Positions 27,301 through 62,913 of a stretch of 64,000 nt of DNA are shown piece after piece (within the stretch, counting starts at the first letter, position 1; each line of letters starts with the position of its first letter). The stretch is taken from NCBI GenBank assembly GCA_023267635.1, contig JAHFMX010000006.1:1940-65939 (forward strand). Direction: 5' to 3'. A program made the position numbers and the translations under genes. This DNA comes from a bacterium (GTDB taxonomy: Bacteria > Patescibacteriota > Minisyncoccia > Phycocordibacterales > UBA5272). The notes below the pieces were generated by a model. That model searched no databases. It was not told the DNA's origin and saw only the letters and a program-made list of their open reading frames with translations.

Positions 27301-27385
27301 ATCAGAGTATCTTGCACAAGCCAACAAAATAAGAGATAATGCAGAGCGCATAACACGCAATTACTACAATGCACATGTGGAATAA
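15356..27385 (+). CDS. giant 4009-aa multi-domain protein, candidate injected polyvalent/ejection protein with two zincin-like HExxH motifs
   Basis: Uninterrupted 12 kb ORF. N-terminal glycine-zipper hydrophobic segments (VIGGLIGGALGG...IGGLIGGGLGYLG). HEFLH at nt 18386-18400 and HEAQH at nt 19199-19213. Four copies of a D-I/L-LYSK linker motif. C-terminal hydrophobic stretches. Confidence 0.7.
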   Translation: MANLIGQQARVKPSDDQDFLGAINSYGGASSTSATTQKNPDQEFTDTINSYGDQTGTLGAYGQTFVQAAKGVPGFIGQAIEGGTPFDQENGVDQIVKDTQKSNEEFASGSDAEQPVLGGLAKVKDIKGSAGSLTSSLATMAPTVIGGLIGGALGGPAAPLTATAGATIGGLIGGGLGYLGMSRQSENQLIRDVVDKEDQTRSAQGKPLLNQDEKVAKQNALLESGDPQLQGFAEAAGETIGNFLEIAAAMTPLGKLGNVLKAVGGPFSGALATAALRGTGILAVENIEEQATNLVQNPIAKRQGLPEATAAETAKQTTLATLPFAALGMGVGGYHDYKSAKKEKDFQEYLAGASTEELQSNIQTLQTPSPEDDEQTAQYKQSLAQAYTDELNSRGTTDENNNQATGAEQPSGIGGIANRPTTLDRGTPKQEPGTNGQGVNVTEPAGASRRSVEPIPQEETRQPGLDERGSTLSNISDEGLKKAIELLNKHETDSPEAIKSKEDAITFYSNELERRKPPTQPIEETQNEKQKITNETDANANEANAETGQGQEGLQVIQPNITQPNITEEGTNLEQAGTATSKNAGQTTKEETGTTTVSSTGEGGLVNVNQAAPVTGIGAEQAKQGTSFGQPGLAESVEAQQKEEVVGSIPTTASVGATGAQKSKAPVVSEGAPQPATAGGQTTPDYSYLSDKGFTPEEIQHVGEASKTHKDLNGWARGRFGYDRVKGVNFTQSIAPNAPAINNEVDAAAHEAAASPLNDLAHPSQAQIEAENPKLGHIENFHGMSISIENPEGSVRSGVSLEGRPWQNTLKNHYGYIKGTVGNDNDHVDTFIGPDVGSQKAFIVNQNHVTRGIGTNRFDEHKVILGAKTKKQALQIYHDNYEKGWQGMGSITQMSVGQLKEQLGTGKLTKPVLQEQVSQQETNQSNKPEAPTPKGYMSTGDVFSRLTSKQRAFHKSGKLIVVPTEEQLPASLRPKKGEESSIPGLYHPKEDKIYVVAHNIKHDELNGLLAHEFLHRAVRVDKVFKGKFDKFDRGLTARFNMAGRGIGSDIEKAAYKHVVDAGTPQHQLLDEYKSYLVQEYAKNPDSFVGEIKRLIEEFIAAIKVALVKSGLDSGFIEKLTPADLYEMSKYGAEQVESTQPQKNNEALKSFIGVKSQTAPKYELSTAMSDIEAGENPEGVRKDTGWFKGADEHWRFEIDDSEAKLDEKEVNTLKGYYKLGRLSGLEKILIHPKLFAAYPQLRTIGIKFAKLQEGVGGGTSQDGKFITLNVDLKDDKILSVLLHEAQHAVQIHEGWAGGGSPSTFQKEFVERVELLEKIVKDINNELSVQAGIMNKYEVRGSYRKYTAPEGYTAAAKYDELMQERSDAAKSLRRIGLLNDVADTSRKIYSRLYGEIEARNVQRRMDFSAQEREKFSPEGTQDYANKDAVILWANADVKGLLFPENEADLLYSKKTKTQEGIKLNERKPTEISTKETSEYTKRNILNTSRLDRTSHAEKRYFQERSGNSAERVRGIKGVFSPGKSITSDFEKAGVPSPEYHEWFNGNKMVEKYMGIMTKAQNTKFGAAVYIYPKEDYRKMRIFVTPDELSGFALKTDGDIVSVVSLPEAPSGRVYSMMALATELGGTKLDAFDTVLPEIYAVSGFKEVGRVNWNEDYKPDNWDKEVFSKFNNGEPDVVFMEYDPTYSPFKRSEIEVSLSNAQHTIPGISKLTKEFVDGDTTAGVLLRELGHDSLDYLTSGIKSVSISYKDPTGVYGGDKEPSLGVAASFEEKDRKEVLRALAQFAKNFDQEQFHVLGSVGTNTEVMHVYDDGSYNTKVYSFTLNKVPSEKEVSKLINNSGLYGLTISGSTLESYYVEQDQNDANEYKEWTSKIDKLHEIISGRNLKSYGEKVARLWVYGSGNRAISYGQIEGKFHPSYTDQGQKASQRVASRLIGRDVKAPSIPKTVTPEQKALQASIAQAYDEMRINALDQTNVIRAYKELASEVLDQYNAMPIKVEVWSGQGEPYSAKGKVSSAEMRKDIAENNHLYIYKTEADSFGPPGVIYDSHPLLEQTGIKDINGVPLVYNDLLRAVHDYYAHTMTDASFGPIGEEAAWKTHMLMTRSPWAKWALTSETRGQNSWVNFRASVQGLPLNERGFAIQKVDLLPKKFLYTGDIVADANLSELPDEGALYSKNLNMSKEARMQRAVEQGFDTSKIMYHGTGGNIKAFDLSFGGQTSHSEVGKLGVSLSDAPLVANEFAGMAGRRELRNANVMQLLYKPGKQLEINLPDAGLVDTIKKAWADGYDSVRFNNYRTPLGYKGNVYIIRRPSDIRSIYAAFDPSQHGSSDILYSKNLDLSHKARMERAVEQGFNINHKFVHVSPHALPTELRNDKTLYLSDNFKYAERYASPSASSMGGKTGDYYSNLAPTSTPVYIKEKNVFDTRKPKDRKLFNEKFLNKYGNGTPLQKSGLPDWVEAEDFREFFEDNNLDYNGVIVDEGADPNDKGGVTKRGISYAMFDPSAVRSVHAAFDPAQQDSSDILYSKKAKPELYSALERGINNSPDRIFNAPASQVKSWLNSNAPKLGIKSDEIYWTGINEYLDSLGNTKTSKQSVLEFISKNKVNPIDKILGVESKDLNDIRLEINDLENEIDVLEHNYPGSSGNEVYEEDEDGNEVYADSDYVQELRDEHEKIIDEKTKELDRLKEDEEELAEESEGKHSGDRLNLPNGRDYRELVVTIPGIRKFNEEDATHFGDVGEGTQISWIRYDSRTDANGESSLFLEEVQSQRGAEGRTKGFGDYDVVKAHEISKKLHSIALKEINLESELENNGGTLSPEKWKELESLKEEHDLLIAEQKKEESKRTLVPPAPFITDSKNKATNTYISLLLKKAVIQAINNGHSSVSWTTGDQQADRYDLSKMVLAIRYNHLGDLVTTKVDDSVWQTIATGVPENKIADYIGKEAAEKLLSQDKDVYGHRTITGNDLKVGGVWTGDMYGDARGLNAQGKPSLITQAASEISRKFGGRIGAISIPGLRYRSEFGNPSITPELEQPALIITPEMREKVLAEDLPLFSRRATFTQTVQNQFQKVKHFATGFDQGISTLADMRSVLSTGHMPTKHIDKQSILDKVATYLVDSSRPFDVWTRRLPNTVKAAQLVLSKDLAKRRTAVMSKEALDTYLRPLSKVIKKIASDIGMDHWAAQSMAGYWMSMRYAIEKNQDFIRQDKEAYEQAITNLMSNPTNASLVKLVNKAADKQAARIAAINEQREIDPNNETLQAGLAGGYNDFTATKLMNEIESKIPRAYLEEAAQHIYDMMKWKTERDLKNGKVTQEQVDSWFNSPFYVPLTGDPSVDESEDSLFNPGGINQAKDKSAVGRKGSLAQSGIDAATEQVEKSAKYHGWVDFKNRLVETYDELIAEEMAQGASKQEAKDNVEREYGITKTPETRVVGTDQGALLLPSQNPTGITVRKNGESNVYDLHNQEAVDALKSVNKEDVPSILRPVANFTRTYARFVTQLLPGFGPVNAIRDTWERSENIRTRVLEEYPDLNMDQVARDAIKTAADPRLIRKIAGVMLENSSLSSKFPINEDDPDIKTLRALIEEGGASTVGDYLATSGRDLAKQMKDSLKLSTEAWNLVSAWNNSFELVSSLSIFKALTSAGVNNKTAAATTLNLMNFGKQGTMIGPLKALYTFVNPTVQGGHQLLQTLTTRKGQARAVAYTLAGIALYGMLRAWDGDDDDLGENKMDNQGMFISERNILIPYGDGNYVKVPVGFGLPQLTWSAAVNLDKWMFGKQKGEDTVAGILKSTARNFAPVAPSETNISQHPIYWMAQTFSPQIAKPLVNVGLNINTFGSSLTNAGYGKEGISEALQGRKSTAQEWKDIAVELGKLGIDLYPEQVREIVRGFAVGPVNEVIKATIENPNREKLGRTTVNNLVDRWVSVHDSGALKERLYYMHRDEMNAAARKESLGTELSSKETGLAKLNRSISKLEGSANGKRAAAAKAIKAGKSGSEYLAQANKIRDNAERITRNYYNAHVE

Positions 27386-42681: not shown

Positions 42682-43218
42682 TCAGGCTATGTGAGTGAAA
42701 CGATTGTTACGGACTGCACGTGCTCTTACCAGTACAGGATCAATGCCTTTAACCCCTTCATTTATCACATAGTCAAACAGAGAAAGTTGAAAAGGCACAG
42801 TAGCCACCGGAGCGGGTGCACGAGAGAACCTTTTATTCCGTGCTTCACGTGCCGCTATCAATGTTTGGTCTATGTTTAACTCTTTGGTTTTGTCTGCTGC
42901 AGAGGTATGTACAATACCCTCAATAAGCTCGGTAACTTCAGACCACGTAGTAGTGGCAGTGTTGACACTAAAGGTTTTGTCAATGCTGTCACCTTCATTG
43001 CTGGTGCCTTTAACTATGACAACGAACCAGCCTTTGCCAAGATTGTAGTCACCGGTTTTCACAGGTTGGAAATACCCAGGCTCATTAACTTGCTCTTTTT
43101 GCTTGTAGCCAAGAGCGGAGTTTCTCAACTCACGTTCTTTACTAAGCTTTGCTATCCGTTTAATGGATTGGGCAAGAGTGGCTTGGTACCGTGCATTTTC
43201 TTCATCTTGTATGTTCAT
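42682..43218 (-). CDS. hypothetical protein
   Basis: 178-aa ORF. Confidence 0.35.
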   Translation of the reverse strand: MNIQDEENARYQATLAQSIKRIAKLSKERELRNSALGYKQKEQVNEPGYFQPVKTGDYNLGKGWFVVIVKGTSNEGDSIDKTFSVNTATTTWSEVTELIEGIVHTSAADKTKELNIDQTLIAAREARNKRFSRAPAPVATVPFQLSLFDYVINEGVKGIDPVLVRARAVRNNRFTHIA

Positions 43219-43250
43219 TTTGCTTACCTATTTTGATTAAATTGTTATTT

Positions 43251-43457
43251 TTACACTTCACTACAGATCATTCCGTTTGGGCTTCCACCCATTTCAAAAA
43301 AATCCTGTGTGAATGCAGTTATTTCGTTCATTGGTGCAGTCACTTTAACTACATCAAACTTATTGCTCAGAACATAATTTGCCGCTTCCCCTGGTATGGA
43401 AAAACGAATTGTAAGGTATATGTTCACATCTTCCCTTTTTAATTTTAGCTCTAACAT
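43251..43457 (-). CDS. small hypothetical protein
   Basis: ORF only. Confidence 0.25.
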   Translation of the reverse strand: MLELKLKREDVNIYLTIRFSIPGEAANYVLSNKFDVVKVTAPMNEITAFTQDFFEMGGSPNGMICSEV

Positions 43458-43566
43458 ACTGACTCCTGTGAGTCTGATTTAAAATTAAAAAGATGTCTGA
43501 ATCTCACAGGCTTTCCGTTTCATGTTTTAGAGGGCTACTACGGATAAGATTCCCTATTAAGGCGGT

Positions 43567-43728
43567 CTACCAGTATCTTGTGCTGTCATTCTCCAGGTCA
43601 AACATAAGCTCTTCAACTTCCGTCAGTGCTAAGTTCATAACGTCTGTCATGATTCTATTGGCTTGGTCATCAGTAATGGTTTTACCTATGTGCTCGATTA
43701 CTGACTCTAATTCTTGAACTGTGTACAT
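43567..43728 (-). CDS. small acidic protein (53 aa) absent from the ORF track
   Basis: Minus-strand ATG preceded by AGAGGA SD; translation MYTVQELESVIEHIGKTITDDQANRIMTDVMNLALTEVEELMFDLENDSTRYW; sits where the track shows only an antisense ORF. Confidence 0.3.
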   Translation of the reverse strand: MYTVQELESVIEHIGKTITDDQANRIMTDVMNLALTEVEELMFDLENDSTRYW

Positions 43729-43998
43729 TTCAGTTTCCTCTATATTCAGTTTAAGTTATTTATTCCGTTTTAGCAGAAGTCCCCTTATTAGTTGGTAGAC
43801 TTCCAGGTTCGGTATTGGTTGAACCCTTGCTTTTCCGTTGAGAGATATTCTCCCCCTATTGGGGTTTATTTGCAACTATTTAATTGCAAATAAATTAAAG
43901 TTTTTTGGGATTTTAATAAATTCAAACACTTAAGGTTTAAAATAATTATATATTTGTAAAATTAATCCGCAAGAAGTGCATTTATTTTATAGTTTAAG

Positions 43999-44247
43999 TC
44001 AGCCTTCAGCATCTTCTTCAAGCAACTCAATCTGGTCTGGTCGATAGATATGAAGCATACCGGAAATTGGTGCATCAAATTCTAAGATAATCCTAGGCTC
44101 ACCGGCTAACGTCTCGAATTCAGCTATGACAGTCCCTGTATGCTGAAAACTCCCACCTACTTTAATAGCCCTATAGGGCTCAAATACTTTGCCCATATTA
44201 GAACGGATTATCATAAATGGGAGGTGTTCTCTCCAACTGAGAGGCAT
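43999..44247 (-). CDS. hypothetical protein
   Basis: ORF only. Confidence 0.3.
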   Translation of the reverse strand: MPLSWREHLPFMIIRSNMGKVFEPYRAIKVGGSFQHTGTVIAEFETLAGEPRIILEFDAPISGMLHIYRPDQIELLEEDAEG

Positions 44248-44470
44248 CTACACAGGATTGGCCAATTACTGCTGCAGCATATCTTTTGTTTATCTCAACT
44301 AAAGCATCTACACCTTCAAGGATAGCTTCTCTATCCTTAGCCGATAATTTGCTCAGCACAGAATCAGCCTTGCCTATGGAGCTCTCCTGTTCTACAGATA
44401 CTCCATAGCCTACTGCATAATTACTAGCCAGAATACAGACAGCGGATAATATTAATACTTTCTTCTTCAT
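44198..44470 (-). CDS. small secreted protein
   Basis: Signal peptide MKKKVLILSAVCILASNYA. Confidence 0.35.
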   Translation of the reverse strand: MKKKVLILSAVCILASNYAVGYGVSVEQESSIGKADSVLSKLSAKDREAILEGVDALVEINKRYAAAVIGQSCVDASQLERTPPIYDNPF

Positions 44471-44479
44471 TTTCTAATC

Positions 44480-44791
44480 CTATTTAATTTCACCAAGCCC
44501 AAAGCATACTGGGCACATTTTACTCATTGTGGAGGCACCCCTGGTAACTTTAACCTTACCAGAGCCATCACACTGGCTACATAGGGAGATTGCAAACTTA
44601 TTGTCAGCATCTCTTATACGCAGCTCATCCAAAGCGTTTTTATAGACTTTTTGAAGATGCTTGAACTCTTCTATGTCTCCACCCTTATCTGGGTGCATGA
44701 TGTGGCTAAGCTTCTTGTATGCCTGCTTCACATCTTCAACTGTAGCACTAGTTCCCAGGCTAAGTATTTCTAAAGCAGTATAATCAGTCAT
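44480..44791 (-). CDS. J-domain protein with one DnaJ-type CxxCxGxG zinc hairpin (mini-DnaJ co-chaperone)
   Basis: DYTALEILSLGTSATVEDVKQAYKKLSHIMHPDKGGD (HPD motif); CSQCDGSGK ... CPVCFGLGE. Confidence 0.75.
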   Translation of the reverse strand: MTDYTALEILSLGTSATVEDVKQAYKKLSHIMHPDKGGDIEEFKHLQKVYKNALDELRIRDADNKFAISLCSQCDGSGKVKVTRGASTMSKMCPVCFGLGEIK

Positions 44792-44799
44792 GTAATTTT

Positions 44800-45024
44800 T
44801 CAGTATGTAATATGCACAAGTAGCCGTTCTGCTTCACTGATGCAGGCCAATTGAGCAACCCCACACCAGTCAGCCCTTACCCTTGCTGAAGCTATGTAGT
44901 TCTCAAGAAGCTTTTGTTTGGGGTAGGTACTACTCAAAGTAGCACCTATGTTGTTGATCCAAAGGAGCTCTTCAGAAGTGCTCCAGGCTGTGTTATGGGA
45001 GTAGTCTGGAGTTTCTTCTTTCAT
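44800..45024 (-). CDS. small hypothetical protein
   Basis: ORF only. Confidence 0.25.
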   Translation of the reverse strand: MKEETPDYSHNTAWSTSEELLWINNIGATLSSTYPKQKLLENYIASARVRADWCGVAQLACISEAERLLVHITY

Positions 45025-45260
45025 TGAAGTGCAATAGAAGCATTAAGATCAACTTGATCGTTAAAGAACTTGATGAAATCTTTTTTGTGTGAGGGGACAT
45101 CTACTTTCTTTATGCTGATTGAACTCCTCACGAAAGTAAGATGCCTAATCAGGCGTGTTTTTAATTTACAAGCTTCACGTTTAGATTTTGACAAGTATGT
45201 GTACCTAAGACCATTTGCTTGCAGACCTGTCACTAGATAAATTTTGGTTAACCTAATCAT
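45021..45260 (-). CDS. small basic hypothetical protein
   Basis: ORF only. Confidence 0.25.
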   Translation of the reverse strand: MIRLTKIYLVTGLQANGLRYTYLSKSKREACKLKTRLIRHLTFVRSSISIKKVDVPSHKKDFIKFFNDQVDLNASIALQ

Positions 45261-46000
45261 AGTGAACCCTTGACAGCAGATGTGATTTCTTTGAACAGTT
45301 CTTTTAAGTACTTCACTTTAGCCTTTTCACCGTATTCAACAGCGGCATCTATGTGTGCATCGAACAGGTCTCTGAAGGAAGTAACCGCCGAAAAATTTAC
45401 AGCTTTAGCCTTGGCAATCAGTTGCTTATCTGTTGCTGCTTCCAGTTTTTCAATTTGCTTTAAAGCACTTGCTAACTCTTTTTCAAGCGTCTTTACTGCA
45501 GGGTCAACTTTTGTTGTGGGTGTGGATACTTTTTCCAGTTGCTTAAGAGCCCCGGAAAGGTCACGCTCAAGCTGCTTTTTTTCAGCTTCAAGTGCTTTAA
45601 CTTTTTGAGCTGAATCTTTGCCTACTGATTTTTCAAGCTCTTTTCTGATAAGTTTTTCAGTGTTTTCCTCGGCCTTGGCAATAGCATCTTCGATCTGCTC
45701 TTCATGCTCTTCAATAGCCTGAGCAACTGCTTCATCAATTAATGCAGAAACTTCATCAAAGTCTTCCCAGCCTTCAGGGAGCCCTGCAGCTGCCGACGTG
45801 TTTGGTGTGCTTAATGTATGTGGGTTGTCTTGATTTAATGCTGCTTCTACTGACTCTGACAGCTCTTGAAGACCAGCTTCAACAACGCCATCGATGTTGT
45901 TAAGTGCCTCTGTAAAGTCTGAGAGGAACTTCTCGAAGGATTTGTTTAGCAGGTCTTCGGGGGTAGGTTCTACTACAGGTTCTGGTTTCTTTTTTGCCAT
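45257..46000 (-). CDS. highly acidic coiled-coil protein, first gene of the leftward early unit
   Basis: 247 aa from the internal ATG (MAKKKPEPV; upstream AAAGAGAA); very high D/E content; promoter-proximal position. Confidence 0.4.
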   Translation of the reverse strand: MAKKKPEPVVEPTPEDLLNKSFEKFLSDFTEALNNIDGVVEAGLQELSESVEAALNQDNPHTLSTPNTSAAAGLPEGWEDFDEVSALIDEAVAQAIEEHEEQIEDAIAKAEENTEKLIRKELEKSVGKDSAQKVKALEAEKKQLERDLSGALKQLEKVSTPTTKVDPAVKTLEKELASALKQIEKLEAATDKQLIAKAKAVNFSAVTSFRDLFDAHIDAAVEYGEKAKVKYLKELFKEITSAVKGSL

Positions 46001-46222
46001 TTTCAAATTCTCTTTATGTTGTTGATCAGGGAGGATTCCCACACGCATAATGATATAGACTTTTATACGAAAAGCAACAACTATTTGAATTATTTTTAGT
46101 TGACAGGGTTAAAAAGGCCCACCGGGTTTAGGGGTGAGCTTCGAGGCCCTTCAGAGGAAGTAGTGGCAAAAAGTAGAGGTAAGCTACTTAGGGGATATGT
46201 TAGCACATTGTCTGAAACAAAG

Positions 46223-46252
46223 TTGACTTTCTTTTTTAAAGGGTGTATTGTG
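46223..46252 (+). promoter_or_regulatory. candidate sigma70-type promoter (TTGACT-17-TATTGT) for the rightward unit
   Basis: Hexamers read directly in the divergent intergenic region upstream of the RHH gene. Confidence 0.3.
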
Positions 46253-46294
46253 TTCATCTTTCTTCACATAAATATTACAAATAGAGGGGCTTCT

Positions 46295-46513
46295 ATGCCT
46301 AGACCAACACCTATTGAACCGTTAGCTCACATTCACATTAAGATGGAGGCTAAATTAAAGCAGCAATTACAAGAACTTGCGGCTAAAAACTCAATTAATT
46401 TCACTCAATTGCTTACCAGACTTGCAGTAGACCACTTAGAAGCGGAAGCTCGCATTTATGGTATTACTGTGAACACCCTCCAGCCACGGAAGGCGGGGGT
46501 TGTAGATGAGTAA
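46295..46513 (+). CDS. ribbon-helix-helix (Arc/CopG-like) DNA-binding protein
   Basis: 72 aa from the ATG with AGAGGGG SD; KMEAKLKQQLQELAAKNSINFTQLLTRLAVDHLE fits beta-strand plus two helices of RHH repressors. Confidence 0.5.
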   Translation: MPRPTPIEPLAHIHIKMEAKLKQQLQELAAKNSINFTQLLTRLAVDHLEAEARIYGITVNTLQPRKAGVVDE

Positions 46514-49403
46514 TGTCCTTTGGTATACCAGATTCCGCCCGAATAAAACTGCCAGCAAGAAGTTTAAGCGTGATTTTGAAAATGATGTGGTAAAAAAGAC
46601 CCCTTCTGCTGATGTTAATGGGGGTATTGTGAGTATTGAAGAAGGAACTCTACTGGACTTCAAGGAACAACTGGAGAACCCTCAAGGTTATGTGGTGTGC
46701 TTTGGGACTTATGATGACGAAGCTTTTGGCTCCCCGGTGGCGTTCACAACAGCTAAAAAGGTAAAAGGAAATGAATCCATTATAGCTAGAACTAATGAGT
46801 TCTTTTCTTTCAGGGAAGGCCAGTCAGGGATCGGTATTGTTGATCATGACCCTTCTGAATATGGAAAAACATTGAGGTGGAGAGAGCTATTAAAAATTCT
46901 CATTGAGATTGACCCACAGATAGCCAAAGCTGAGTACGTAGTGCGAGGCTCTTTGTCCGCCGGGGTACACAAGACTGGTGAAAAACCTAAAGATGGTGGT
47001 GGTTTCCACATCTACTTCAATATTTCTGATATGTCTGACGTTAAGCGTTATTTTGACACTATAGGTCAGCATCTTTGGTTGAAAGGCTACGGGTTTATCC
47101 AGGTTGCCGGGGATGGCTCTTTGCATGAGCGGTGCCCTATTGATCTGTGCATGTACCAGCCTACACGTATTGACTTCATAGACCACCCGATAATTGAGGG
47201 TGAAGGGCTTGAATTTACGCCGCCTACAGTGAGATATAAAGCAGGTCTGCCCATAGACACGTCTAAGCTGGAAAAAATCACTGGATCACAAAAAATTGAG
47301 ATTGTTAAGCTTGTGAGTAAGGCTAAAGCTCTCATGAAAGATGAAGCAAAACAGAAACGGGCAGAATACCTGGAAGCAATAGATAAGATTTTAGAGGGTC
47401 AAGGTTTACCAGCTGATGAAAGAGCCCGGCGTATTGCAGATTATTCTGTGGGTAGTGAGGACTTAGCTCCAGGTACTCTACTCCAGTTTGCTAATGGAGT
47501 TGATATATCTGTTGGTGAGCTACTTGAAAGGCATGAAGAGTTTGAAGGTCTTCCATTAGTTGATCCAAGGAATTTAAGGGGGCATTACCCGGATGATTCA
47601 GCACGGTTTTTCTTCAATGAAGAGTTTAATTATCCAATCATTAGAAGCTGGGGGCACAATGGAAAGGTGTTCAGGCTTGTTAGTTATGAAAAAGCTGAAG
47701 CCAAAGAAGAGTTTGAAAAAAAGGTCTATGGTGGTGTAGAAGAGACTCTTGAGACAATGAAGAGTGATGATTCTGTGTGGCGTAGTGCTGAGTTCCTTGA
47801 TGAGTTGATGAATCTTGAGGAACTTGACGGTGCTGAGTATGACAGGGTTGAAAAGAAGCTGAAAGCGTTGGGCGTTGGTAAGGTAAAGCTTGATGATGCT
47901 TTGCGGAAACGTAAAGCTGCTTTGAGAAAAGAGAAAGGTCTTAATCAGAACGGTGGCTACAACATCACTGAATCTGAAGTTGCAAAGAATATTAGTGATA
48001 GGCTTTTTGGAACTATTTGTTATGACAACAAAGGGAAAGATTTTTACATGTATAACGAAGGGCTTTGGTCTGTTGTTTCTGATGAACTGTTGAAGCGTGC
48101 CATAGATGAAGAGCTCTATATTGATTTTCCAATGGGGTTTGGAAAGGTTTTTCTCAATAATGTGAAAGACCTTCTTAAACATGAAATGTTGTTCAGAGGG
48201 TGGGAAAACGAAAAACACTTGTTGCCATTCACTAATGGTGTGTTGGACACAAAAACAATGATTTTGTCAGACCATTCTTTTGAAAACTGGTTTAACTGGC
48301 AACTACCTTATGCTTACGATGTTGATGCAAAAATTGACGTTGTAGAAAAATGGTTGAATGAGTCATGCCTGGATAATTCTGAAAAAGTTAAAACTATAAG
48401 AGCTTTTTTTAAAATGGCGCTGTTGGGTGGTGAGCTTCAAAAATTTCTTGAGTTAATAGGCCCAGGTGGGAGTGGTAAAAGTACACTAACAAGGCTTCTA
48501 ATAAATTTTGTTGGTAAAAGAAATATAGCTACAACTGATCTTGGGAACCTTGAAAAAAGTCAATTTGAGTCAGCAAAAATTTATGGTAAACGTTTAGTTC
48601 TTATAAGTGACTCAAAAAAATTCGGTGGCGAAGTTTCAATACTCAAACAAATGACTGGTGGTGATCCGATAAGACTTGAGAAAAAAGGCATCCAACAAAC
48701 CGGAGCTGATGATTTTATTTATGGCGGGGTTGTTGCAATTGTTGCTAATGAAGCGATACAGTCCTCTGATTATACGTCCGGTTTGTCAAGGCGTAGATTG
48801 CCAGTAACATTTGATCGACAAGTCACCGATACAGATAAGGCTAAATGGGAATCTTTAGGCGGTATTGAATCAGTAATGATTAAGGAGCTTCCAGGTTTGT
48901 TGAATTGGGTTCTTGAAATGAATGAGAGTGAAGTAAGGAAAGCTATTTGTGGTATCAATGGTGTTTTGGTTTTATCAGAGCGTGAACATTTGATCACTAC
49001 AAATAAACAAGCTCAATGGATTCATGAAAATCTTTCTTTGAACCCAAAAAGTTTTTTGAGTGTGTGGGTTAGCATGAGAAAAAAAGATAGCTCTGAGACT
49101 ATAGAAGCTTGCAAGGATAAGTTGTACCCCAACTATGAAAATTGGTGTGATGAGCAAGGATTGAGACCTATAGCTGTTAAAAGTTTTTCTGAAAATATTT
49201 TAGACATTTGTAAAAGACTTGGCTTAGATGCTTGCAAAGTAGTTACCAGATCAGGAGCATACATAAGGGGTTTTGAAATACGGGATAGAGATAAAAAAGG
49301 TTTATGCTCTCCTATAACTGGAAAAGTTTTTATGGAAGAACCAAAAGAATTAAGCAATGTTATTTCTTTAACTAAAGCTAAAGGTAAAAAAAGTAAATAT
49401 TGA
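46506..49403 (+). CDS. bifunctional primase-polymerase (AEP) / D5-P4-type superfamily-3 helicase
   Basis: N-terminal AEP motifs GIGIVDHD and GGGFHIYFN; Walker A GPGGSGKST; Walker B-like LVLISD; 965 aa. Confidence 0.75.
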   Translation: MSNVLWYTRFRPNKTASKKFKRDFENDVVKKTPSADVNGGIVSIEEGTLLDFKEQLENPQGYVVCFGTYDDEAFGSPVAFTTAKKVKGNESIIARTNEFFSFREGQSGIGIVDHDPSEYGKTLRWRELLKILIEIDPQIAKAEYVVRGSLSAGVHKTGEKPKDGGGFHIYFNISDMSDVKRYFDTIGQHLWLKGYGFIQVAGDGSLHERCPIDLCMYQPTRIDFIDHPIIEGEGLEFTPPTVRYKAGLPIDTSKLEKITGSQKIEIVKLVSKAKALMKDEAKQKRAEYLEAIDKILEGQGLPADERARRIADYSVGSEDLAPGTLLQFANGVDISVGELLERHEEFEGLPLVDPRNLRGHYPDDSARFFFNEEFNYPIIRSWGHNGKVFRLVSYEKAEAKEEFEKKVYGGVEETLETMKSDDSVWRSAEFLDELMNLEELDGAEYDRVEKKLKALGVGKVKLDDALRKRKAALRKEKGLNQNGGYNITESEVAKNISDRLFGTICYDNKGKDFYMYNEGLWSVVSDELLKRAIDEELYIDFPMGFGKVFLNNVKDLLKHEMLFRGWENEKHLLPFTNGVLDTKTMILSDHSFENWFNWQLPYAYDVDAKIDVVEKWLNESCLDNSEKVKTIRAFFKMALLGGELQKFLELIGPGGSGKSTLTRLLINFVGKRNIATTDLGNLEKSQFESAKIYGKRLVLISDSKKFGGEVSILKQMTGGDPIRLEKKGIQQTGADDFIYGGVVAIVANEAIQSSDYTSGLSRRRLPVTFDRQVTDTDKAKWESLGGIESVMIKELPGLLNWVLEMNESEVRKAICGINGVLVLSEREHLITTNKQAQWIHENLSLNPKSFLSVWVSMRKKDSSETIEACKDKLYPNYENWCDEQGLRPIAVKSFSENILDICKRLGLDACKVVTRSGAYIRGFEIRDRDKKGLCSPITGKVFMEEPKELSNVISLTKAKGKKSKY

Positions 49404-52820: not shown

Positions 52821-54977
52821 ATGTCAGTAGCCCCTGAGAGTGCTAGAGAGCTTCTAAGAGCGAAGGTCGAAGTAGCCAGAGAGATAGAGAAGCGAGAGTG
52901 TGAAAAGTCTCTAGCAGAGTTCTGTCGCTCTGCATGGCACATCATAGAGCCGGGAACTCCACTCAAGTGGAACTGGCACATTGACACTATCTGCGCTTAC
53001 ATCCAGGCTTTCCATGAGGGGAAGTTACCGGATAAGAGGTTGATCATAAACGTACCTCCAGGGACTTTAAAAAGTATCATTGTCTCTGTGATGTACCCAT
53101 CTTGGGCTTGGATCAAAGACCCTTCTACTCGGTTCTTGGCTATCAGTAACGCTGCTTCTTTGGCTACTCGTGATGCATTGAGAATGAAGTCAATCGTCAC
53201 ATCCCCTTGGTATCAGAGCCACTGGCCAACGACATTGAGGATCGATCAGAATGAGAAGAACCTGTTTGTTAATGGCACACAAGGCTTCAGGCAGTCACAA
53301 GGTATAAGTGCATGTACCACTGGGAAGCGTGGAGATTGCTTTCCAGAATATATGGAAGTGTCTACAGAGCATGGGATGAAGAAGATTACAGAAGTTAAGG
53401 TCAATGACTTGGTTTGGTCTATGAACACTAAGACCGGGGGTGTAGAGTTAAAGCCAGTCACTCACTTAGTGCACAATGGCACAAGTGAGATTGTTGAAGT
53501 AGTGCTTAGTAATGGTCAGATAATACACTGTACACCTGACCATAAGGTTTGGACTATTGAAGAGGGTATGGTTAGGGCTGATAGCTTAGTGTCTGTTAAG
53601 GGCTCTGAGCTCTCTCTTGACATCATTAGCATAATTGGCACTAATTCCAAACAATTTAGCAAGCTCTTTACCAGTCATGGTGGAGTTAACAAACCTCTCT
53701 TCACTCCTGATAAGACCTGTGTTGCTGATAGAGTAAGCACCCTCATAACCAGGGATAGTACGCCACTCAATGTTGTTAGTAGTAGAAGTATTGGGCATAT
53801 TAGTGATACCTACTGTTTGTGTGTGAAAGACAATGCTACATTATTTGTAGGAACAAGACAAGTGCTTGTCTCCAATTGTCTAATAATAGATGACCCCGTA
53901 GACAGCCAACAAGCCTTCTCTGATGTTATTAGAGAATCAGTTAACAATACGTGGGATAATGCTTTGTCATCAAGATTAAATGACATGACAAAATCCGGAG
54001 TGCTATTAATCCAACAAAGGGTTAATGAACTTGACCTTACTGGGCATCTGCTAAAAAAAGTAAAATCACATTGGACACATCTTAGCATTCCAATGAGGTA
54101 TGAAGGAACATCAACGTTTAATCCCATTAAAGATATTGGAAATGCTGAAGTAAAAGACCCAAGAATAAAAAAGAGTCAACTACTATTTCCTTCTCGATTT
54201 CCTGAGCGTGCAGTTCAATCGTTAGAGGAAGACTTAGGAGAGTATGGTACTTCGGCTCAGCTTCAACAAAGACCGGTTCCGGCAGGCGGCGGAATTATAA
54301 AAAAACATTGGTGGCGTGTCTTACCAGAAGACGAAATGCCAAAGATCATCAACGTCTTCATCAGCTTCGACACTGCGTTCTCAGAAGCAGACTCAAAGAC
54401 TTCTGCGTTCTCCGCCGCGACGCGCTGGGGTATCTTCTGGCATGAGCAAAGACAACGCTACTGTCTCTTGGCGTTGGGCATGTGGTTCGCACGGGTAGGC
54501 TACGACGAGCTACGTGCTACAGTCCAGGCCATGAACAAAGACCATGATCCCGATGTGCTACTCATCGAAAAAAAGGCAACAGGCATAAGTATCATACAAG
54601 ATTTGAAGAGATCAGTTCCAGGTAAGGTAAGAGCGTACTGCCCAGGCAAGGGAGAAGACAAGATCAGTAGAGGAAACTCAGTATCCCCTATGGTGCAATC
54701 AGGTCAATGCTATGTACCTAACAAGACTTGGGCTTTAGGTGATGGTAAGGGCAAGCTAGGTTTGATTGATTACATTGCTAGTTTTCCCGGAGGTGCACCA
54801 CCCGCGCCAGACATATTTGACTCATTTTCAGCGGCACTCATATTCATGCGCTCAGGCAATTGGCTCGGAGATCATGATGACGACAAAGACTGGACTAATG
54901 TTATCACACACGTGAGCTCTGAAGAGGAGGATGAAGACCTTGAAGACTCAGCAATACCAACTCGATTTTATGGCTAA
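52821..54977 (+). CDS. terL: terminase large subunit (ATPase plus nuclease) interrupted by a mini-intein
   Basis: N-terminal LIINVPPGTLKS (Walker-A-like, PPxxGKS class); Walker B LIIDDP re-formed when the extein junction GKRGD | CLIIDDP is joined. Confidence 0.7.
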   Translation: MSVAPESARELLRAKVEVAREIEKRECEKSLAEFCRSAWHIIEPGTPLKWNWHIDTICAYIQAFHEGKLPDKRLIINVPPGTLKSIIVSVMYPSWAWIKDPSTRFLAISNAASLATRDALRMKSIVTSPWYQSHWPTTLRIDQNEKNLFVNGTQGFRQSQGISACTTGKRGDCFPEYMEVSTEHGMKKITEVKVNDLVWSMNTKTGGVELKPVTHLVHNGTSEIVEVVLSNGQIIHCTPDHKVWTIEEGMVRADSLVSVKGSELSLDIISIIGTNSKQFSKLFTSHGGVNKPLFTPDKTCVADRVSTLITRDSTPLNVVSSRSIGHISDTYCLCVKDNATLFVGTRQVLVSNCLIIDDPVDSQQAFSDVIRESVNNTWDNALSSRLNDMTKSGVLLIQQRVNELDLTGHLLKKVKSHWTHLSIPMRYEGTSTFNPIKDIGNAEVKDPRIKKSQLLFPSRFPERAVQSLEEDLGEYGTSAQLQQRPVPAGGGIIKKHWWRVLPEDEMPKIINVFISFDTAFSEADSKTSAFSAATRWGIFWHEQRQRYCLLALGMWFARVGYDELRATVQAMNKDHDPDVLLIEKKATGISIIQDLKRSVPGKVRAYCPGKGEDKISRGNSVSPMVQSGQCYVPNKTWALGDGKGKLGLIDYIASFPGGAPPAPDIFDSFSAALIFMRSGNWLGDHDDDKDWTNVITHVSSEEEDEDLEDSAIPTRFYG
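53337..53876 (+). mobile_element. 180-aa mini-intein (Hint domain, no homing-endonuclease insert) inside terL
   Basis: Starts at Cys (CFPEYMEV, block A); TPDH block-B-like; ends VLVSN followed by extein Cys; inserted exactly at the Walker B motif. Confidence 0.55.
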
Positions 54978-59613: not shown

Positions 59614-59784
59614 ATGAATAAAGTAGAAGAAACTTTAAAACACCTGGTTCTTAGAGGCCCTACGAAAAGTAGAGTAAACCTGCATAAGAATGCTAATGGT
59701 AGTTTGGACAATGCGTACTCGATTGGAGTTAAGGACGGTAAAATACTTTTGGCTAGAGAACTATTGAAGGAACTTAATAAATGA
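59614..59784 (+). CDS. small ORF (56 aa) coupled to portal start
   Basis: ATGA overlap with 59781. Confidence 0.25.
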   Translation: MNKVEETLKHLVLRGPTKSRVNLHKNANGSLDNAYSIGVKDGKILLARELLKELNK

Positions 59785-62213
59785 GTACAATGAATTATGG
59801 TCTTGGTGACGAAGATATAGCAGTTCCAACTTGGGAAGAAGCAGCTAAACCTGATATTGTAGAAGTTATGAAATTTGTTGAGGAGGCTGAGGCTAATGGA
59901 CTTGCACCTGAAGAAGTTTTATCACATGATCAGATGATGGTGTGGGAAGAATTCTTGGCTACAATGAATAGTGCAGAGCAGCCTCTTGAGCACTTTGCTG
60001 ATTTAACTGACTACATTGATAGCGTTGATCACAGTTACTTAGGGGGCTTGGCTTCCGATGTAATCAACTGGGTTATGTGGGACGAGGAAACCAGGAGAGA
60101 TTGGGAGTACCGTGAGGCAGAAGGCATTAGATTACTAGGAGTCTCAGACACACCATTAAGCAAAGCTCTCTTTGAAGGAGCGAGTCAGTTAGTGCACCCG
60201 ATACTAGCAGAGGCAACAATAGACTTCCATTCAAGAATGATGACTGAAATATGGCCTCCTGAAGGACCAGTCAAAGCCATTGTTCTTGGAGACTCAACAC
60301 CAGAACTAGAAGAACAGGCTGATCGTGTTTCAGATTACATGAACTATCAGTACACTGAAGACATGCCTGGTGGGTTTGAAGAAACTGACGCTATGCTGTT
60401 TAGGCTTACGCTTTCAGGTTCTTGCTTTAAGAAAACCTACAATGACCCTCTTACAGGTAAAAACGTTTCTAAGAAGGTAGAGGCTTCAGACTTCATAGTG
60501 CCCTACTCAGCTACAGACTTGGTATCAGCTCCACGCTTCACCCACAGATACCGGATGAATCACAACACAGTACTTAAACATCAACAAGCCGGATACTTCA
60601 CTAAACTTGTTGATGTACAACTGCCTACAACTACCAATGACACAACACAGAAATCCCCTCAACGAAGAGAGATAGATAGCGTAGAAGGGAGCAATGAAGG
60701 TTCTTCTATTGAAGACCCTACACATATTTTAATGGAAATGGTTGTGGACTTGGAAATTCCTGGAATGGAGGACACTGATCCAGTTACCGGTAAACCTACA
60801 GGCATCCTTAGACCCTACTTAGTTATTGTTGATTATGACTCTCAAAAGATTCTGCGAGTCCAAAGAATGTGGGAGCAGGATGATGAGAAGAAAGAAAAAA
60901 TTGTTGAGTACACTCATTTCAGACTTTTCCCTGGCCTTGGATTCTATGGTATGGGTCTTTTGCATTTTATGGGCAATCTGGTACTTGGTGCTAGTGGTTC
61001 GCTAAACAGTTTACTTGACTCAGCTGCATTCAGCAATTTCCAAGGGGGCTACAGATCAAGTGATGCACGAATATCTGGAGATCAGAAACCTCTGAAGCCC
61101 GGTGAATGGCGTGAGCTTAAGAACGTAACCGCAGAGGACTTACAGAAGGCTTTTTTCCGAGTGCCTTATGGGGAGCCTTCAGATGTTTTGTTTGATGTTC
61201 TGAAGTACCTGGATGAAAAAGCTTCAACCAGTTTCCTCTCAGCCGGACAAGTGATGACCGGCGAAGCAAACAACAATGCCCCGGTTGGGACAACCCTAGC
61301 TCTTATTGAGCAAGGCTCCAAGCCATTCAATGCAGTCCACATTCGTTTGCATCGTGCTATGCACGAAGAGTTCAGACGGTTGGCTAATCTTAATGGTAAG
61401 AACGTCCCTGAAGAAGGATACCCATACGCCATAGCAAGTAAGTCTAAAGTTATTTTTGCTGCAGACTTCGATGAAAGAGTCGATGTAATACCTGTTTCTG
61501 ACCCTAACATCATTAGCTCAACACAAAGGATTCACATAGCCCAAGCTGTTTTGCAAGTGGCAGAAGCCCATCCTGATGAAGTTAATATTTCTGAAGCAAT
61601 CAAGGCTTTCTTTACAGCGATCAGAGTGCCTAATGTTGATGCACTTATAGCAGATAACCAAGCAATAAAAGCCAATCAACAAAGAATGGCAGACATTGAG
61701 TATGAAGCCAAGCAGAAGGATATTGCCAAAGTACAGGCTGAGATAAACAAGCTTGAGGCTGAACGTGTACAAGTTACATTGACAGGAATGTACACAGCAT
61801 ACCAGGCGGCGCAAGTTGCCGTACAAGATGCAATGGGCACACCTGCTACGGTTGACCCTAAGACAGGAGTGGTTATTCAAGGGACTGCTCCTGGCCTTTC
61901 AGTTGCTACAGTTGCAGAACAGCTATTTCAAAGTGCCGGTGGTAAAGATTGGAATGGTTCACCACTACTTGATGAGGCACATGCTCAAGCACAACCACAG
62001 CAACCAGTTTTATCAAACTTTGCTCAAACACCTATGCAAGCACAGACAGCAGCTGTTGGTAATAACACAAGTCCAATGTTTCCGGCTAACCCTAAGATGC
62101 CTGAAGTGGGTACACCACCTTCAACAGCTCCTGTGGCAGCTCCTGCAAGTGGGTTAGTTGGAGCTAATGCAGGGATCGAAACACAAAGAGCTGATGGTGG
62201 ACTGAGTGCCTAG
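59781..62213 (+). CDS. putative portal protein with long C-terminal helical (barrel-like) extension
   Basis: 810 aa; sits between the terminase and the scaffold-like gene; C-terminal Q/A/K-rich helix (QRMADIEYEAKQKDIAKVQAEINKLEAERVQ) reminiscent of P22-type portal barrels. Confidence 0.45.
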   Translation: MSTMNYGLGDEDIAVPTWEEAAKPDIVEVMKFVEEAEANGLAPEEVLSHDQMMVWEEFLATMNSAEQPLEHFADLTDYIDSVDHSYLGGLASDVINWVMWDEETRRDWEYREAEGIRLLGVSDTPLSKALFEGASQLVHPILAEATIDFHSRMMTEIWPPEGPVKAIVLGDSTPELEEQADRVSDYMNYQYTEDMPGGFEETDAMLFRLTLSGSCFKKTYNDPLTGKNVSKKVEASDFIVPYSATDLVSAPRFTHRYRMNHNTVLKHQQAGYFTKLVDVQLPTTTNDTTQKSPQRREIDSVEGSNEGSSIEDPTHILMEMVVDLEIPGMEDTDPVTGKPTGILRPYLVIVDYDSQKILRVQRMWEQDDEKKEKIVEYTHFRLFPGLGFYGMGLLHFMGNLVLGASGSLNSLLDSAAFSNFQGGYRSSDARISGDQKPLKPGEWRELKNVTAEDLQKAFFRVPYGEPSDVLFDVLKYLDEKASTSFLSAGQVMTGEANNNAPVGTTLALIEQGSKPFNAVHIRLHRAMHEEFRRLANLNGKNVPEEGYPYAIASKSKVIFAADFDERVDVIPVSDPNIISSTQRIHIAQAVLQVAEAHPDEVNISEAIKAFFTAIRVPNVDALIADNQAIKANQQRMADIEYEAKQKDIAKVQAEINKLEAERVQVTLTGMYTAYQAAQVAVQDAMGTPATVDPKTGVVIQGTAPGLSVATVAEQLFQSAGGKDWNGSPLLDEAHAQAQPQQPVLSNFAQTPMQAQTAAVGNNTSPMFPANPKMPEVGTPPSTAPVAAPASGLVGANAGIETQRADGGLSA

Positions 62214-62517: not shown

Positions 62518-62913
62518 ATGAATTTTGAAGCTGAAAACGTGCCACTTGAAAAGTTACCTCAACCAGCAGGTTGGAGAATTTTAGTTGCACCGGTTAAGAT
62601 TGAAAAAGTTTCACAAGGCGGGATTGTCCTTGTCGATGATACTACTGAAGCAATGCAGTACTTCAGAAATGTTGGTAAAGTTTTGGCGGTTGGTAGTGAA
62701 TGCTACAAGCATCCAAAGTTTCAAGGTGGCATTGAGCTCACTGTTAAAGAACCGAGAGCCTGGTGTAAAGTGGGCGACATTATCCATTTCAATTCATTCA
62801 ATGGTGCGGACATAGTCCTCCATTATGAAGGGGAAGCGATAAAGTTAAAAATAATGAATGACGATTGTGTATTTTCGGTTATCCCTGATACGGATGTTCT
62901 GAAACTTGTATAA
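62518..62913 (+). CDS. GroES/Cpn10-like co-chaperonin
   Basis: Aligns by eye to E. coli GroES across both halves: RILVAPVKIEKVSQGGIVL ... GKVLAVG (RVIVKRKEVETKSAGGIVL ... GEVLAVG) and CKVGDIIHFN (VKVGDIVIFN). Confidence 0.7.
   Translation: MNFEAENVPLEKLPQPAGWRILVAPVKIEKVSQGGIVLVDDTTEAMQYFRNVGKVLAVGSECYKHPKFQGGIELTVKEPRAWCKVGDIIHFNSFNGADIVLHYEGEAIKLKIMNDDCVFSVIPDTDVLKLV

Follow-up and report, generated by a model that had tools for sequence, protein, structure and literature searches.

Polyomavirus large T antigen carries a J-domain on a superfamily 3 (SF3) replicative helicase, and the chaperones Hsp70/Hsp40 promote origin binding by the papillomavirus E1 helicase. Stand-alone DnaJ-type CxxCxGxG modules occur in Bacillus subtilis Anti-TRAP and plant BSD2. 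DnaK and DnaJ remodel lambda O-P-DnaB and P1 RepA (Mayer 2021, PMC8215388), and HMO-2011-type phage DNA polymerases carry an insert with two CXXCXGXG motifs (PMC9038755). Phage J-domain proteins have been known since 2012, the first to be characterised being Rki (gp057w) of enterobacteriophage RB43 (PMC3486835). In the present study we examined a gene for a 103-residue protein, hereafter mini-DnaJ, located at 44480..44791 on the minus strand of a 64,000-nucleotide stretch of phage DNA (positions 1,940 to 65,939 of contig JAHFMX010000006.1, Patescibacteriota assembly GCA_023267635.1), the whole of which is referred to as the window. A few phage genomes already list proteins of this architecture under the label 'DnaJ domain'; what is new is a testable hypothesis for a large uncharacterised family whose members keep two elements of DnaJ and no others, the J-domain and the repeat-2/3 zinc hairpin, together with the observation that this family and one class of primase-helicase gene are tightly co-inherited, often with overlapping stop and start codons. 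On balance we favour, by a modest degree, the explanation that mini-DnaJ recruits host DnaK to the phage replication machinery, which is the best overall account of the observations described below.

Domain architecture and comparison with described J-proteins

The mini-DnaJ gene is an ATG-to-TAA open reading frame (ORF) of 103 codons and a stop, present in the ORF list with the translation MTDYTALEILSLGTSATVEDVKQAYKKLSHIMHPDKGGDIEEFKHLQKVYKNALDELRIRDADNKFAISLCSQCDGSGKVKVTRGASTMSKMCPVCFGLGEIK. An ortholog (P0002) on the 11.5-kb metagenomic contig L001 is 71% identical to it, with a dN/dS of 0.107 for the pair (synonymous sites being close to saturation), and a 73-residue fragment with 100% identity was found on a second short contig. 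L001 also shares the gene order of the window, in which the primase-helicase, with a small protein on its 5' side, is followed by a 263-aa coiled-coil protein, a 79-aa protein, a 74-aa protein and the J-protein. The sequence comparisons indicate a real gene under purifying selection, and the reading of 44480-44791 as something other than a gene was ruled out by the dN/dS value, the synteny and the profile matches.

The J-domain (aa 1-58; 44618..44791, minus strand) was delimited from the Pfam match, an AlphaFold2 (AF2) model and Foldseek, with coordinates confirmed via translation. Pfam DnaJ (PF00226) matches aa 8-51 at 34.7 bits against a gathering cut-off of 27.8 (E 2e-8), and the translation holds the HPD tripeptide at aa 33-35 inside HPDKGGD (44687..44695, minus strand), which bears out the original prediction of a canonical HPD J-domain. 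A phmmer search against all Protein Data Bank (PDB) chains returned J-domains almost exclusively, from E 1.6e-5, including 1gh6, 2pf4 and 1faf. The AF2 model, built on a 67-member family alignment (mean predicted local distance difference test score, pLDDT, 91), opens with a short helix I (6-9) and helix II (18-32). Past the HPD loop, one uninterrupted long helix III (40-66; 44594..44674, minus strand) extends as a stalk from the J-domain to the zinc knuckle, and a beta hairpin (strands 79-84 and 87-92) flanked by both CxxC motifs comes next. No helix IV is present in the model, and the Pfam match ends at profile position 51 of 63. As the HPD motif and the first cysteine lie ~30 residues apart in most family members, which leaves no space for helix IV, the lack of this helix characterises the family. 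In Foldseek comparisons with PDB structures, many J-domains had a probability of 1.00, among them the DnaJ J-domain bound to DnaK (5nro_B, root mean square deviation (rmsd) 1.8 Å over 50 columns), and the three-helix J-domain of Tim14 is also found among the fold matches. The residues of DnaJ that contact DnaK are R22, K26, R27, K48, K51, H33, P34 and D35 (Mayer 2021, PMC8215388), and the equivalents in mini-DnaJ, based on BLASTP to Escherichia coli DnaJ, are K22, K26, K27, K44, Q47, H33, P34 and D35, with four of the five basic docking residues kept. By every sequence and fold criterion the J-domain is predicted to be competent.

Where the E. coli DnaJ sequence used for these comparisons aligns with chains 1xbl and 5nro_B, it agrees with them residue for residue, and chain 1exk, spanning DnaJ 131-209 at 177.6 bits, provided the numbering map for the zinc domain. 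BLASTP aligned mini-DnaJ aa 1-55 with DnaJ 1-59 and aa 71-102 with DnaJ 161-192. The second alignment covers the zinc knuckle (CSQCDGSG-x14-CPVCFGLG, aa 71-100; 44492..44581, minus strand), which consists of the CxxCxGxG motifs CSQCDGSG (aa 71-78) and CPVCFGLG (aa 93-100), and places C71, C74, C93 and C96 at DnaJ C161, C164, C183 and C186, that is, in repeats 2 and 3. The match of NCBIfam PRK10767 positions 154-192 to the knuckle agrees with this mapping. The cysteine-rich domain of DnaJ (1exk) matches aa 70-101 by phmmer (E 0.012), and Foldseek returned DnaJ zinc domains with a probability of 1.00, with rmsd values of 1.2 Å for 1exk and 1.7 Å for 2ctt (DNAJA3), each over 35 columns. C71 and C93 are 22 residues apart, a register found in 89 of 107 aligned family members (see below), and the family consensus at the hairpin turn, Gly-Phe/Trp, corresponds to QGFF of DnaJ. 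Pfam DnaJ_CXXCXGXG (PF00684) scores 23.8 against a cut-off of 32.7, falling below it because the model describes four repeats and mini-DnaJ has two, and Anti-TRAP (PF15777) scores 16.8 bits against a cut-off of 32. The two CxxCxGxG motifs form one hairpin, so the earlier description of a single DnaJ-type zinc hairpin in 103 aa was accurate. The knuckle can be regarded as a single DnaJ-type unit with a predicted one-zinc site formed by its four cysteines, and mini-DnaJ is almost certainly a J-domain plus zinc-knuckle protein. Repeats 2 and 3 of DnaJ (C161-C186) make up zinc centre II, which, from the work of Linke et al. in 2003, is reportedly needed for productive cooperation with DnaK, centre I being said to support DnaK-independent chaperone activity. 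Mayer 2021 (PMC8215388) cites Linke et al. solely for the participation of the zinc finger in binding substrates.

Residues 58-70 of mini-DnaJ (RIRDADNKFAISL) hold no glycine/phenylalanine-rich (G/F) tract, DnaJ_C (PF01556) finds no match in the protein, and the chain ends three residues past the second repeat. NCBIfam DnaJ equivalog models score 25-45 bits against cut-offs of 338-619, an order of magnitude under, and the sequence places mini-DnaJ as a class C (type III) J-protein and not as a DnaJ orthologue. It shares with E. coli DnaJ the N-terminal J-domain with HPD at the same numbering (33-35), the residues K/R22, Y25, K26, K/R27, F47 (F43 in mini-DnaJ), K48 (K44) and Y54 (Y50), and a CxxCxGxG-x14-CxxCxGxG hairpin in the same 22-residue register. 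In contrast, helix IV, the G/F region, repeats 1 and 4 (zinc centre I), C-terminal domains I/II and the dimerisation domain are all missing, the two proteins having 103 and 376 aa, respectively. Since the client-binding and dimerisation parts of DnaJ are absent, mini-DnaJ cannot be a general client-binding DnaJ.

Among phage proteins the closest characterised counterpart is Rki, likewise a phage-encoded class C J-protein with a helix IV region that is poorly conserved or absent, which is expressed early and has host DnaK as its target (PMC3486835). Rki differs in its length of 237 aa, its unrelated C-terminal domain and its lack of a zinc knuckle, look-alikes of the zinc domain being separate ORFs in RB43. 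Membership of the Rki family was considered and rejected, as mini-DnaJ with its 103 aa is too short to include the ~160-aa Rki C-terminal domain. Matches in T4-like Klebsiella and Aeromonas phages are confined to aa 4-49 of the J-domain. Polyomavirus large T antigen has an identical HPDKGGD motif, and in each of the two systems a viral replicative helicase goes together with the J-domain, D5-like helicases belonging to SF3. However, the J-domain of large T antigen is fused to its SF3 helicase, whereas that of the phages is a separate small protein with homology limited to the J-domain. This resemblance is a functional analogy rather than family membership, and may have arisen by convergence. 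Anti-TRAP, BSD2 and the HMO-2011-type polymerase insert share with mini-DnaJ the two CxxCxGxG motifs that build one zinc site in proteins other than complete DnaJ, but have no J-domain.

Distribution of the mini-DnaJ family

An exhaustive phmmer search with mini-DnaJ across 1.84 billion representatives returned 2911 proteins at E<=1e-3. The same end-to-end layout, in proteins of 80-125 aa, was found in 107 of the best 150 cluster representatives (50% identity level). As a family definition, this layout consists of a length of 85-125 aa, HPDxGG, ~25-40 residues from HPD to the first cysteine and a single C-terminal CxxC-x18-CxxC knuckle, and the window protein fits it with 103 aa, HPDKGG, 38 residues between HPD and cysteine, and the 22-residue register. 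Identity between mini-DnaJ and the other members of the 67-sequence alignment is 27-44%. In the family alignments (67 and 107 sequences) H33, P34, D35, G37, G38, the four cysteines and the four motif glycines are invariant, and F43 is conserved in >90% of members. The 107-member alignment was pre-selected for HPD and CxxC, and independent evidence of conservation is therefore limited to the GG pair, F43 and the motif glycines.

The best structural match in BFVD was a 91-aa 'DnaJ domain' protein from an uncultured Caudovirales phage (E 7.6e-9). A tblastn search of 50,697 phage records with the family member P0005 as query identified full-length members in only Stenotrophomonas phage AXL3 (gp60, 111 aa), Pseudoxanthomonas phage PW916 and Siphoviridae sp. 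ctUtU524; some J-domain is held by ~190 of these records. AXL3 gp60, the 'DnaJ domain' ORF of PW916, the 'putative chaperone protein' of ctUtU524 and UniProt A0A6J5M874 have the same full-length architecture and lie in a replication module near a primase-helicase. A scan of IMG/VR with the window protein gave a weak zinc-motif match only. Genome and metagenome scans based on a two-sequence alignment gave J-domain-only matches, mostly in metagenome-assembled genomes (MAGs) of Planctomycetes, which reflect the peptide patterns selected for the scan and are uninformative on the host. These searches point to a family that is abundant in metagenomes, rare in isolates and annotated by homology alone.

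Genomic linkage to primase-helicase genes and a GroES homologue

In the genomes, genes of the mini-DnaJ family go together with D5/VapE-type primase-helicase genes, a conserved partner that the original prediction had overlooked. A DUF5906/VapE-type primase-helicase lies within ~7 kb of the mini-DnaJ gene in 13 of 13 non-redundant contexts (the window, L001, AXL3, PW916, ctUtU524, L007, L008, L010, L012, L080, L133, L135 and L136), and is situated immediately upstream of it in six of these. The mini-DnaJ start overlaps the primase-helicase stop codon by 4 nt in five of the six (L008, L012, L133, L135 and L136) and lies 32 nt past it in L010. In the remaining loci the mini-DnaJ gene was found ~0.8 kb downstream of the primase-helicase (L080, from IMG/VR), 7 kb downstream in the same operon direction (L007), or 0.9-3.7 kb downstream of a gene annotated 'primase' or 'VapE' (AXL3, PW916 and ctUtU524). 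In L007, L008, L010, L012, L080, L133, L135 and L136 the upstream gene encodes a ~680-700-aa primase-helicase with DUF3854 and DUF5906 domains (Pfam), and a local helicase profile confirmed a primase-helicase in each of these loci, including those in which the upstream ORF is incomplete. The primase-helicase of the window (46506..49403, plus strand) has 965 aa, with D5_N (40.9 bits against a cut-off of 22.4) and a DUF5906 P-loop domain (54.2 against 27.6), and matches PHROG DNA primase families. It is divergent from the mini-DnaJ gene, their starts being 1.7 kb apart, and the same arrangement is seen in L001. AXL3, PW916 and ctUtU524 differ from the window in this respect, as their mini-DnaJ genes are co-directional with a DUF3854-DUF5906 primase and that of the window is divergent from a D5_N-DUF5906 primase-helicase.

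As controls we used 120 IMG/VR loci (mean 8.8 kb) with a coding HPDKGGDxxxF motif, mostly from J-proteins of 150-400 aa. Such a helicase was present in none of 119 control loci and in the sole mini-DnaJ locus of the 120, giving a Fisher p of 3e-18 for the 13 contexts against the controls and 2e-10 for the six contexts that lay outside the building of the helicase model. Among the 50,697 phage records, full-length homologues of the L008 primase-helicase were found in only four, namely AXL3 (two records), PW916 and ctUtU524, all of them mini-DnaJ phages. A full-text literature search found no paper that links a phage J-protein to a primase. Five long phmmer hits (P0010, P0037, P0074, P0043 and P0083) considered as candidate fusions were rejected, being J-proteins that contain PDZ/PH, rhodanese, TPR or ankyrin domains.

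The window also encodes a 131-aa GroES/Cpn10 homologue (62518..62913, plus strand) directly after the portal gene (59781-62213), in agreement with the GroES homolog previously placed at 62.5 kb. This protein was identified by Pfam Cpn10 (27.2 against a cut-off of 21.1), phrog_3188 'co-chaperonin GroES' (1.7e-15) and PDB chain 3nx6 (2.4e-4); the scores for all NCBIfam GroES models fall well short of the cut-offs, and the product is thus a divergent Cpn10 homologue of phage type rather than an equivalog of GroES. Its relatives are annotated as GroES in Pelagibacter, Roseobacter, Caulobacter and cyanobacterial phages, the closest being those of Pelagibacter phages HTVC027P/HTVC023P, Roseobacter phages CRP-901/902 and Caulobacter phages. 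CRP-901/902 also hold the closest terminase (37% identity), and overall the nearest terminase and GroES relatives come from aquatic Roseobacter and Pelagibacter phages at <=37.5% identity. The isolate phages with a mini-DnaJ are absent from the 14 phage records with a GroES-like homologue, and vice versa. The GroES homologue is not part of the mini-DnaJ module and the pairing is not conserved. The suggestion that the phage encodes co-chaperones for both major host chaperone machines thus holds in so far as homologues of both are found in this genome, but does not extend to other mini-DnaJ phages, from which the pair is absent.

Proposed function and alternative explanations

The sequence of the J-domain makes it likely that mini-DnaJ acts through host DnaK; the recruitment of DnaK advanced in the original prediction would follow from family membership. 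Following infection, the J-domain would dock on ATP-bound host DnaK and trigger ATP hydrolysis, and the zinc knuckle, being the only other module, would provide targeting, most likely to the phage primase-helicase or a replication-initiation complex. DnaK fired on that specific native client would then bring about helicase assembly, loading or remodelling. That the target is the replication machinery we regard as quite possible, while leaning slightly against it when this part is taken by itself. More tentative still is the specific proposal that mini-DnaJ is the dedicated J-co-chaperone of the D5/VapE-type (SF3-like) primase-helicase, a phage 'split large-T-antigen' in which the knuckle binds the helicase and the J-domain fires DnaK. 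On that proposal, a wide range of phages would rely on an adaptor to host Hsp70, encoded by the virus itself, to assemble the replicative helicase or load it at the origin, and the combination of a J-domain with a replicative helicase would represent a recurrent solution in polyomaviruses and bacteriophages. If the coupling to replication is confirmed, phages with their own replicative helicase would be seen still to use host Hsp70 via an adaptor of ~100 residues, and mini-DnaJ would offer a minimal natural J-protein for dissecting the role of the DnaJ zinc hairpin, and AXL3 (gp60, gp64), a phage of Stenotrophomonas maltophilia, provides a culturable system for its study.

Several observations weigh against recruitment of DnaK to replication. 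The link to the primase-helicase is weaker in the window and L001 than elsewhere, with the genes 1.7 kb apart and divergent. The helicase of the window is of the D5_N plus DUF5906 type and that of L001 is VapE-like; both share only the P-loop domain family with the other loci, the window protein being just a distant relative of the DUF3854-DUF5906 type, and the helicase profile built without the window and L001 proteins misses the window protein. Co-occurrence could also reflect the shared descent of one broad phage clade and not a physical partnership; other mini-DnaJ lineages have a similar replication module, with DNA polymerase A, an SNF2 helicase and a PD-(D/E)XK nuclease. No J-domain/helicase fusion was present among the long phmmer hits. 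The control loci average 8.8 kb in length and some of their motif matches are perhaps not J-proteins. Within the protein, DnaJ K51 is replaced by glutamine (Q47), and the hairpin turn of the window protein is Gly-Ala (A86) in place of the family-typical aromatic residue. Finally, the papers describing AXL3 and PW916 merely name 'DnaJ' in the replication module, and a literature search found no functional study of any member of the mini-DnaJ family.

Other roles for mini-DnaJ can be envisaged. It might divert or titrate DnaK from sigma-32, stabilising this heat-shock factor and raising host chaperones including GroEL, which the phage GroES homologue could use for capsid folding. Rki of RB43, an early class C J-protein, does exactly that, and the same phage has separate genes for small proteins that look like the zinc domain of DnaJ (PMC3486835). 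The intact J-domain of mini-DnaJ, its lack of a recognisable client-binding domain and the Cpn10 homologue in the same phage are consistent with this scenario, which we nevertheless consider rather unlikely, as there is no similarity to Rki beyond the J-domain, the GroES pairing is not kept in other mini-DnaJ phages and the tight coupling to the primase-helicase would be left unexplained. Improbable to a greater degree is a general folding function, in which mini-DnaJ and the GroES homologue boost host chaperones for the bulk folding and assembly of virion proteins, a view implicit in the original prediction. Both co-chaperone homologues score above their Pfam thresholds, and a part in helping viral proteins to assemble has been discussed for phage DnaJ/DnaK homologues (PMC12619734); however, mini-DnaJ is missing the C-terminal beta-sandwich domains, which contain the client-binding sites of DnaJ (PMC8215388), as well as the G/F region, its gene lies in the replication module and not in the morphogenesis module, and the conserved neighbour of the family is a helicase and not a capsid gene.

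We attach little weight to the idea that mini-DnaJ is a client-less decoy, competing with DnaJ for DnaK and thereby blunting DnaJ/DnaK-dependent defences or toxin-antitoxin systems. DnaJ has been reported to mediate phage sensing by the NLR-related bNACHT25 (cited in PMC12619734), the mini-DnaJ gene sits amid small, fast-evolving, mosaic genes of the kind typical of host-takeover regions, and the same genome encodes a 4009-aa polyvalent effector protein. Yet PADLOC gave no significant match (best E 0.0057) and nothing connects the family to defence loci; moreover, anti-defence genes are usually found in patchy neighbourhoods, whereas the coupling of mini-DnaJ to one replication gene holds across 30-45% identity. 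None of these three scenarios, namely heat-shock hijacking, folding help and interference with defence, accounts for the helicase linkage. The last alternative makes the cysteine module the business end of the protein, either as a nucleic-acid-binding zinc ribbon or as a thiol-disulfide oxidoreductase, with a vestigial J-domain. Weak PHROG matches of aa 54-102 to the zinc regions of Q-like antiterminators (E 0.0015-0.03) would fit this role, as would the occurrence of DnaJ-type modules on their own in Anti-TRAP and BSD2, mini-DnaJ itself having a weak Pfam match to Anti-TRAP. A DnaJ-type module is also found inside the HMO-2011-type phage DNA polymerase (PMC9038755). We give this possibility hardly any credence, because a vestigial domain would not be conserved in the manner observed, with the HPD motif, the following GG and the J-domain core invariant or nearly so across the family, and the antiterminator matches are far weaker than those to DnaJ.

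Gene neighbourhood and other features of the window

The mini-DnaJ gene is the fourth of a leftward cluster of small genes that runs on into DNA polymerase and helicase genes. The first three, which match no Pfam family (44800..46048), encode proteins of 263 aa (45257-46048), 79 aa (45021-45260) and 74 aa (44800-45024, directly 5' of mini-DnaJ), all on the minus strand, with BLASTP identities to L001 ORFs of 55%, 68% and 71%, respectively. The 263-aa protein is acidic and coiled-coil-rich, its sole matches being weak ones to SMC/JetC-like coiled coils. Directly downstream of mini-DnaJ, a 90-aa protein (44198-44470, minus strand) has a signal-peptide-like N-terminal segment (MKKKVLILSAVCILASNYAVG) and no family match, and its position in L001 is occupied by an unrelated 75-aa gene, a mosaic swap. 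On the other side of the divergent region, a 72-aa protein (46295-46513, plus strand), 58% identical in L001, overlaps the primase-helicase start; by eye it resembles a ribbon-helix-helix DNA-binding protein, Pfam finding no such domain, and it may regulate the divergent promoter region 46049-46294. Identities of neighbouring genes between the window and L001 range from 36% to 100% with one gene swapped altogether, indicating that the region around mini-DnaJ is a mosaic.

The mini-DnaJ start lies 8 nt past the upstream stop codon and has no Shine-Dalgarno-like motif, which together suggest that its translation is coupled to that of the upstream gene; motifs of this kind are found 5' of about half of the genes in the window. 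A scan of 43500-46700 for sigma-70 promoters and terminators found no more sites than in shuffled sequence and carries no information on timing, and the placement of mini-DnaJ in an early region by the original prediction is plausible. Megablast of window positions 43000-47000 found no match in the 50,697 phage records, so that the phage is novel at the DNA level relative to this collection, and no tRNA genes were found in the window.

Two metagenomic contigs with a mini-DnaJ gene carry other notable genes. In L012, an Acb2/Tad1 hairpin domain (PF24729; 8634-9038), whose fold is known as an anti-CBASS/anti-Thoeris sponge, is encoded in the same replication-proximal gene block. In L008, HMUDK_HMUD1 and HMUDK_hel domains (2420-3831) and a thymidylate synthase are encoded 5' of the primase-helicase/mini-DnaJ pair, which suggests thymidine hypermodification in this phage, the Pfam names pointing to hydroxymethyl-dUMP kinase proteins.

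The 4009-aa polyvalent protein of the window (15356-27385, plus strand) is encoded at the end of the tail module and was recognised by a Pfam InPase match at aa 765-902 (149.7 bits). It also contains LPD23, LPD38, an ART-PolyVal ADP-ribosyltransferase and a DUF6782 metallopeptidase-like region, and is probably a multi-effector delivered alongside the DNA. The large terminase subunit (718 aa; 52821-54977, plus strand) contains an intein, with a Pfam Intein_splicing match at aa 185-340 (37.1 against a cut-off of 35.8) and Hint-module matches, and its tblastn alignments to other terminases break into two pieces around the intein.

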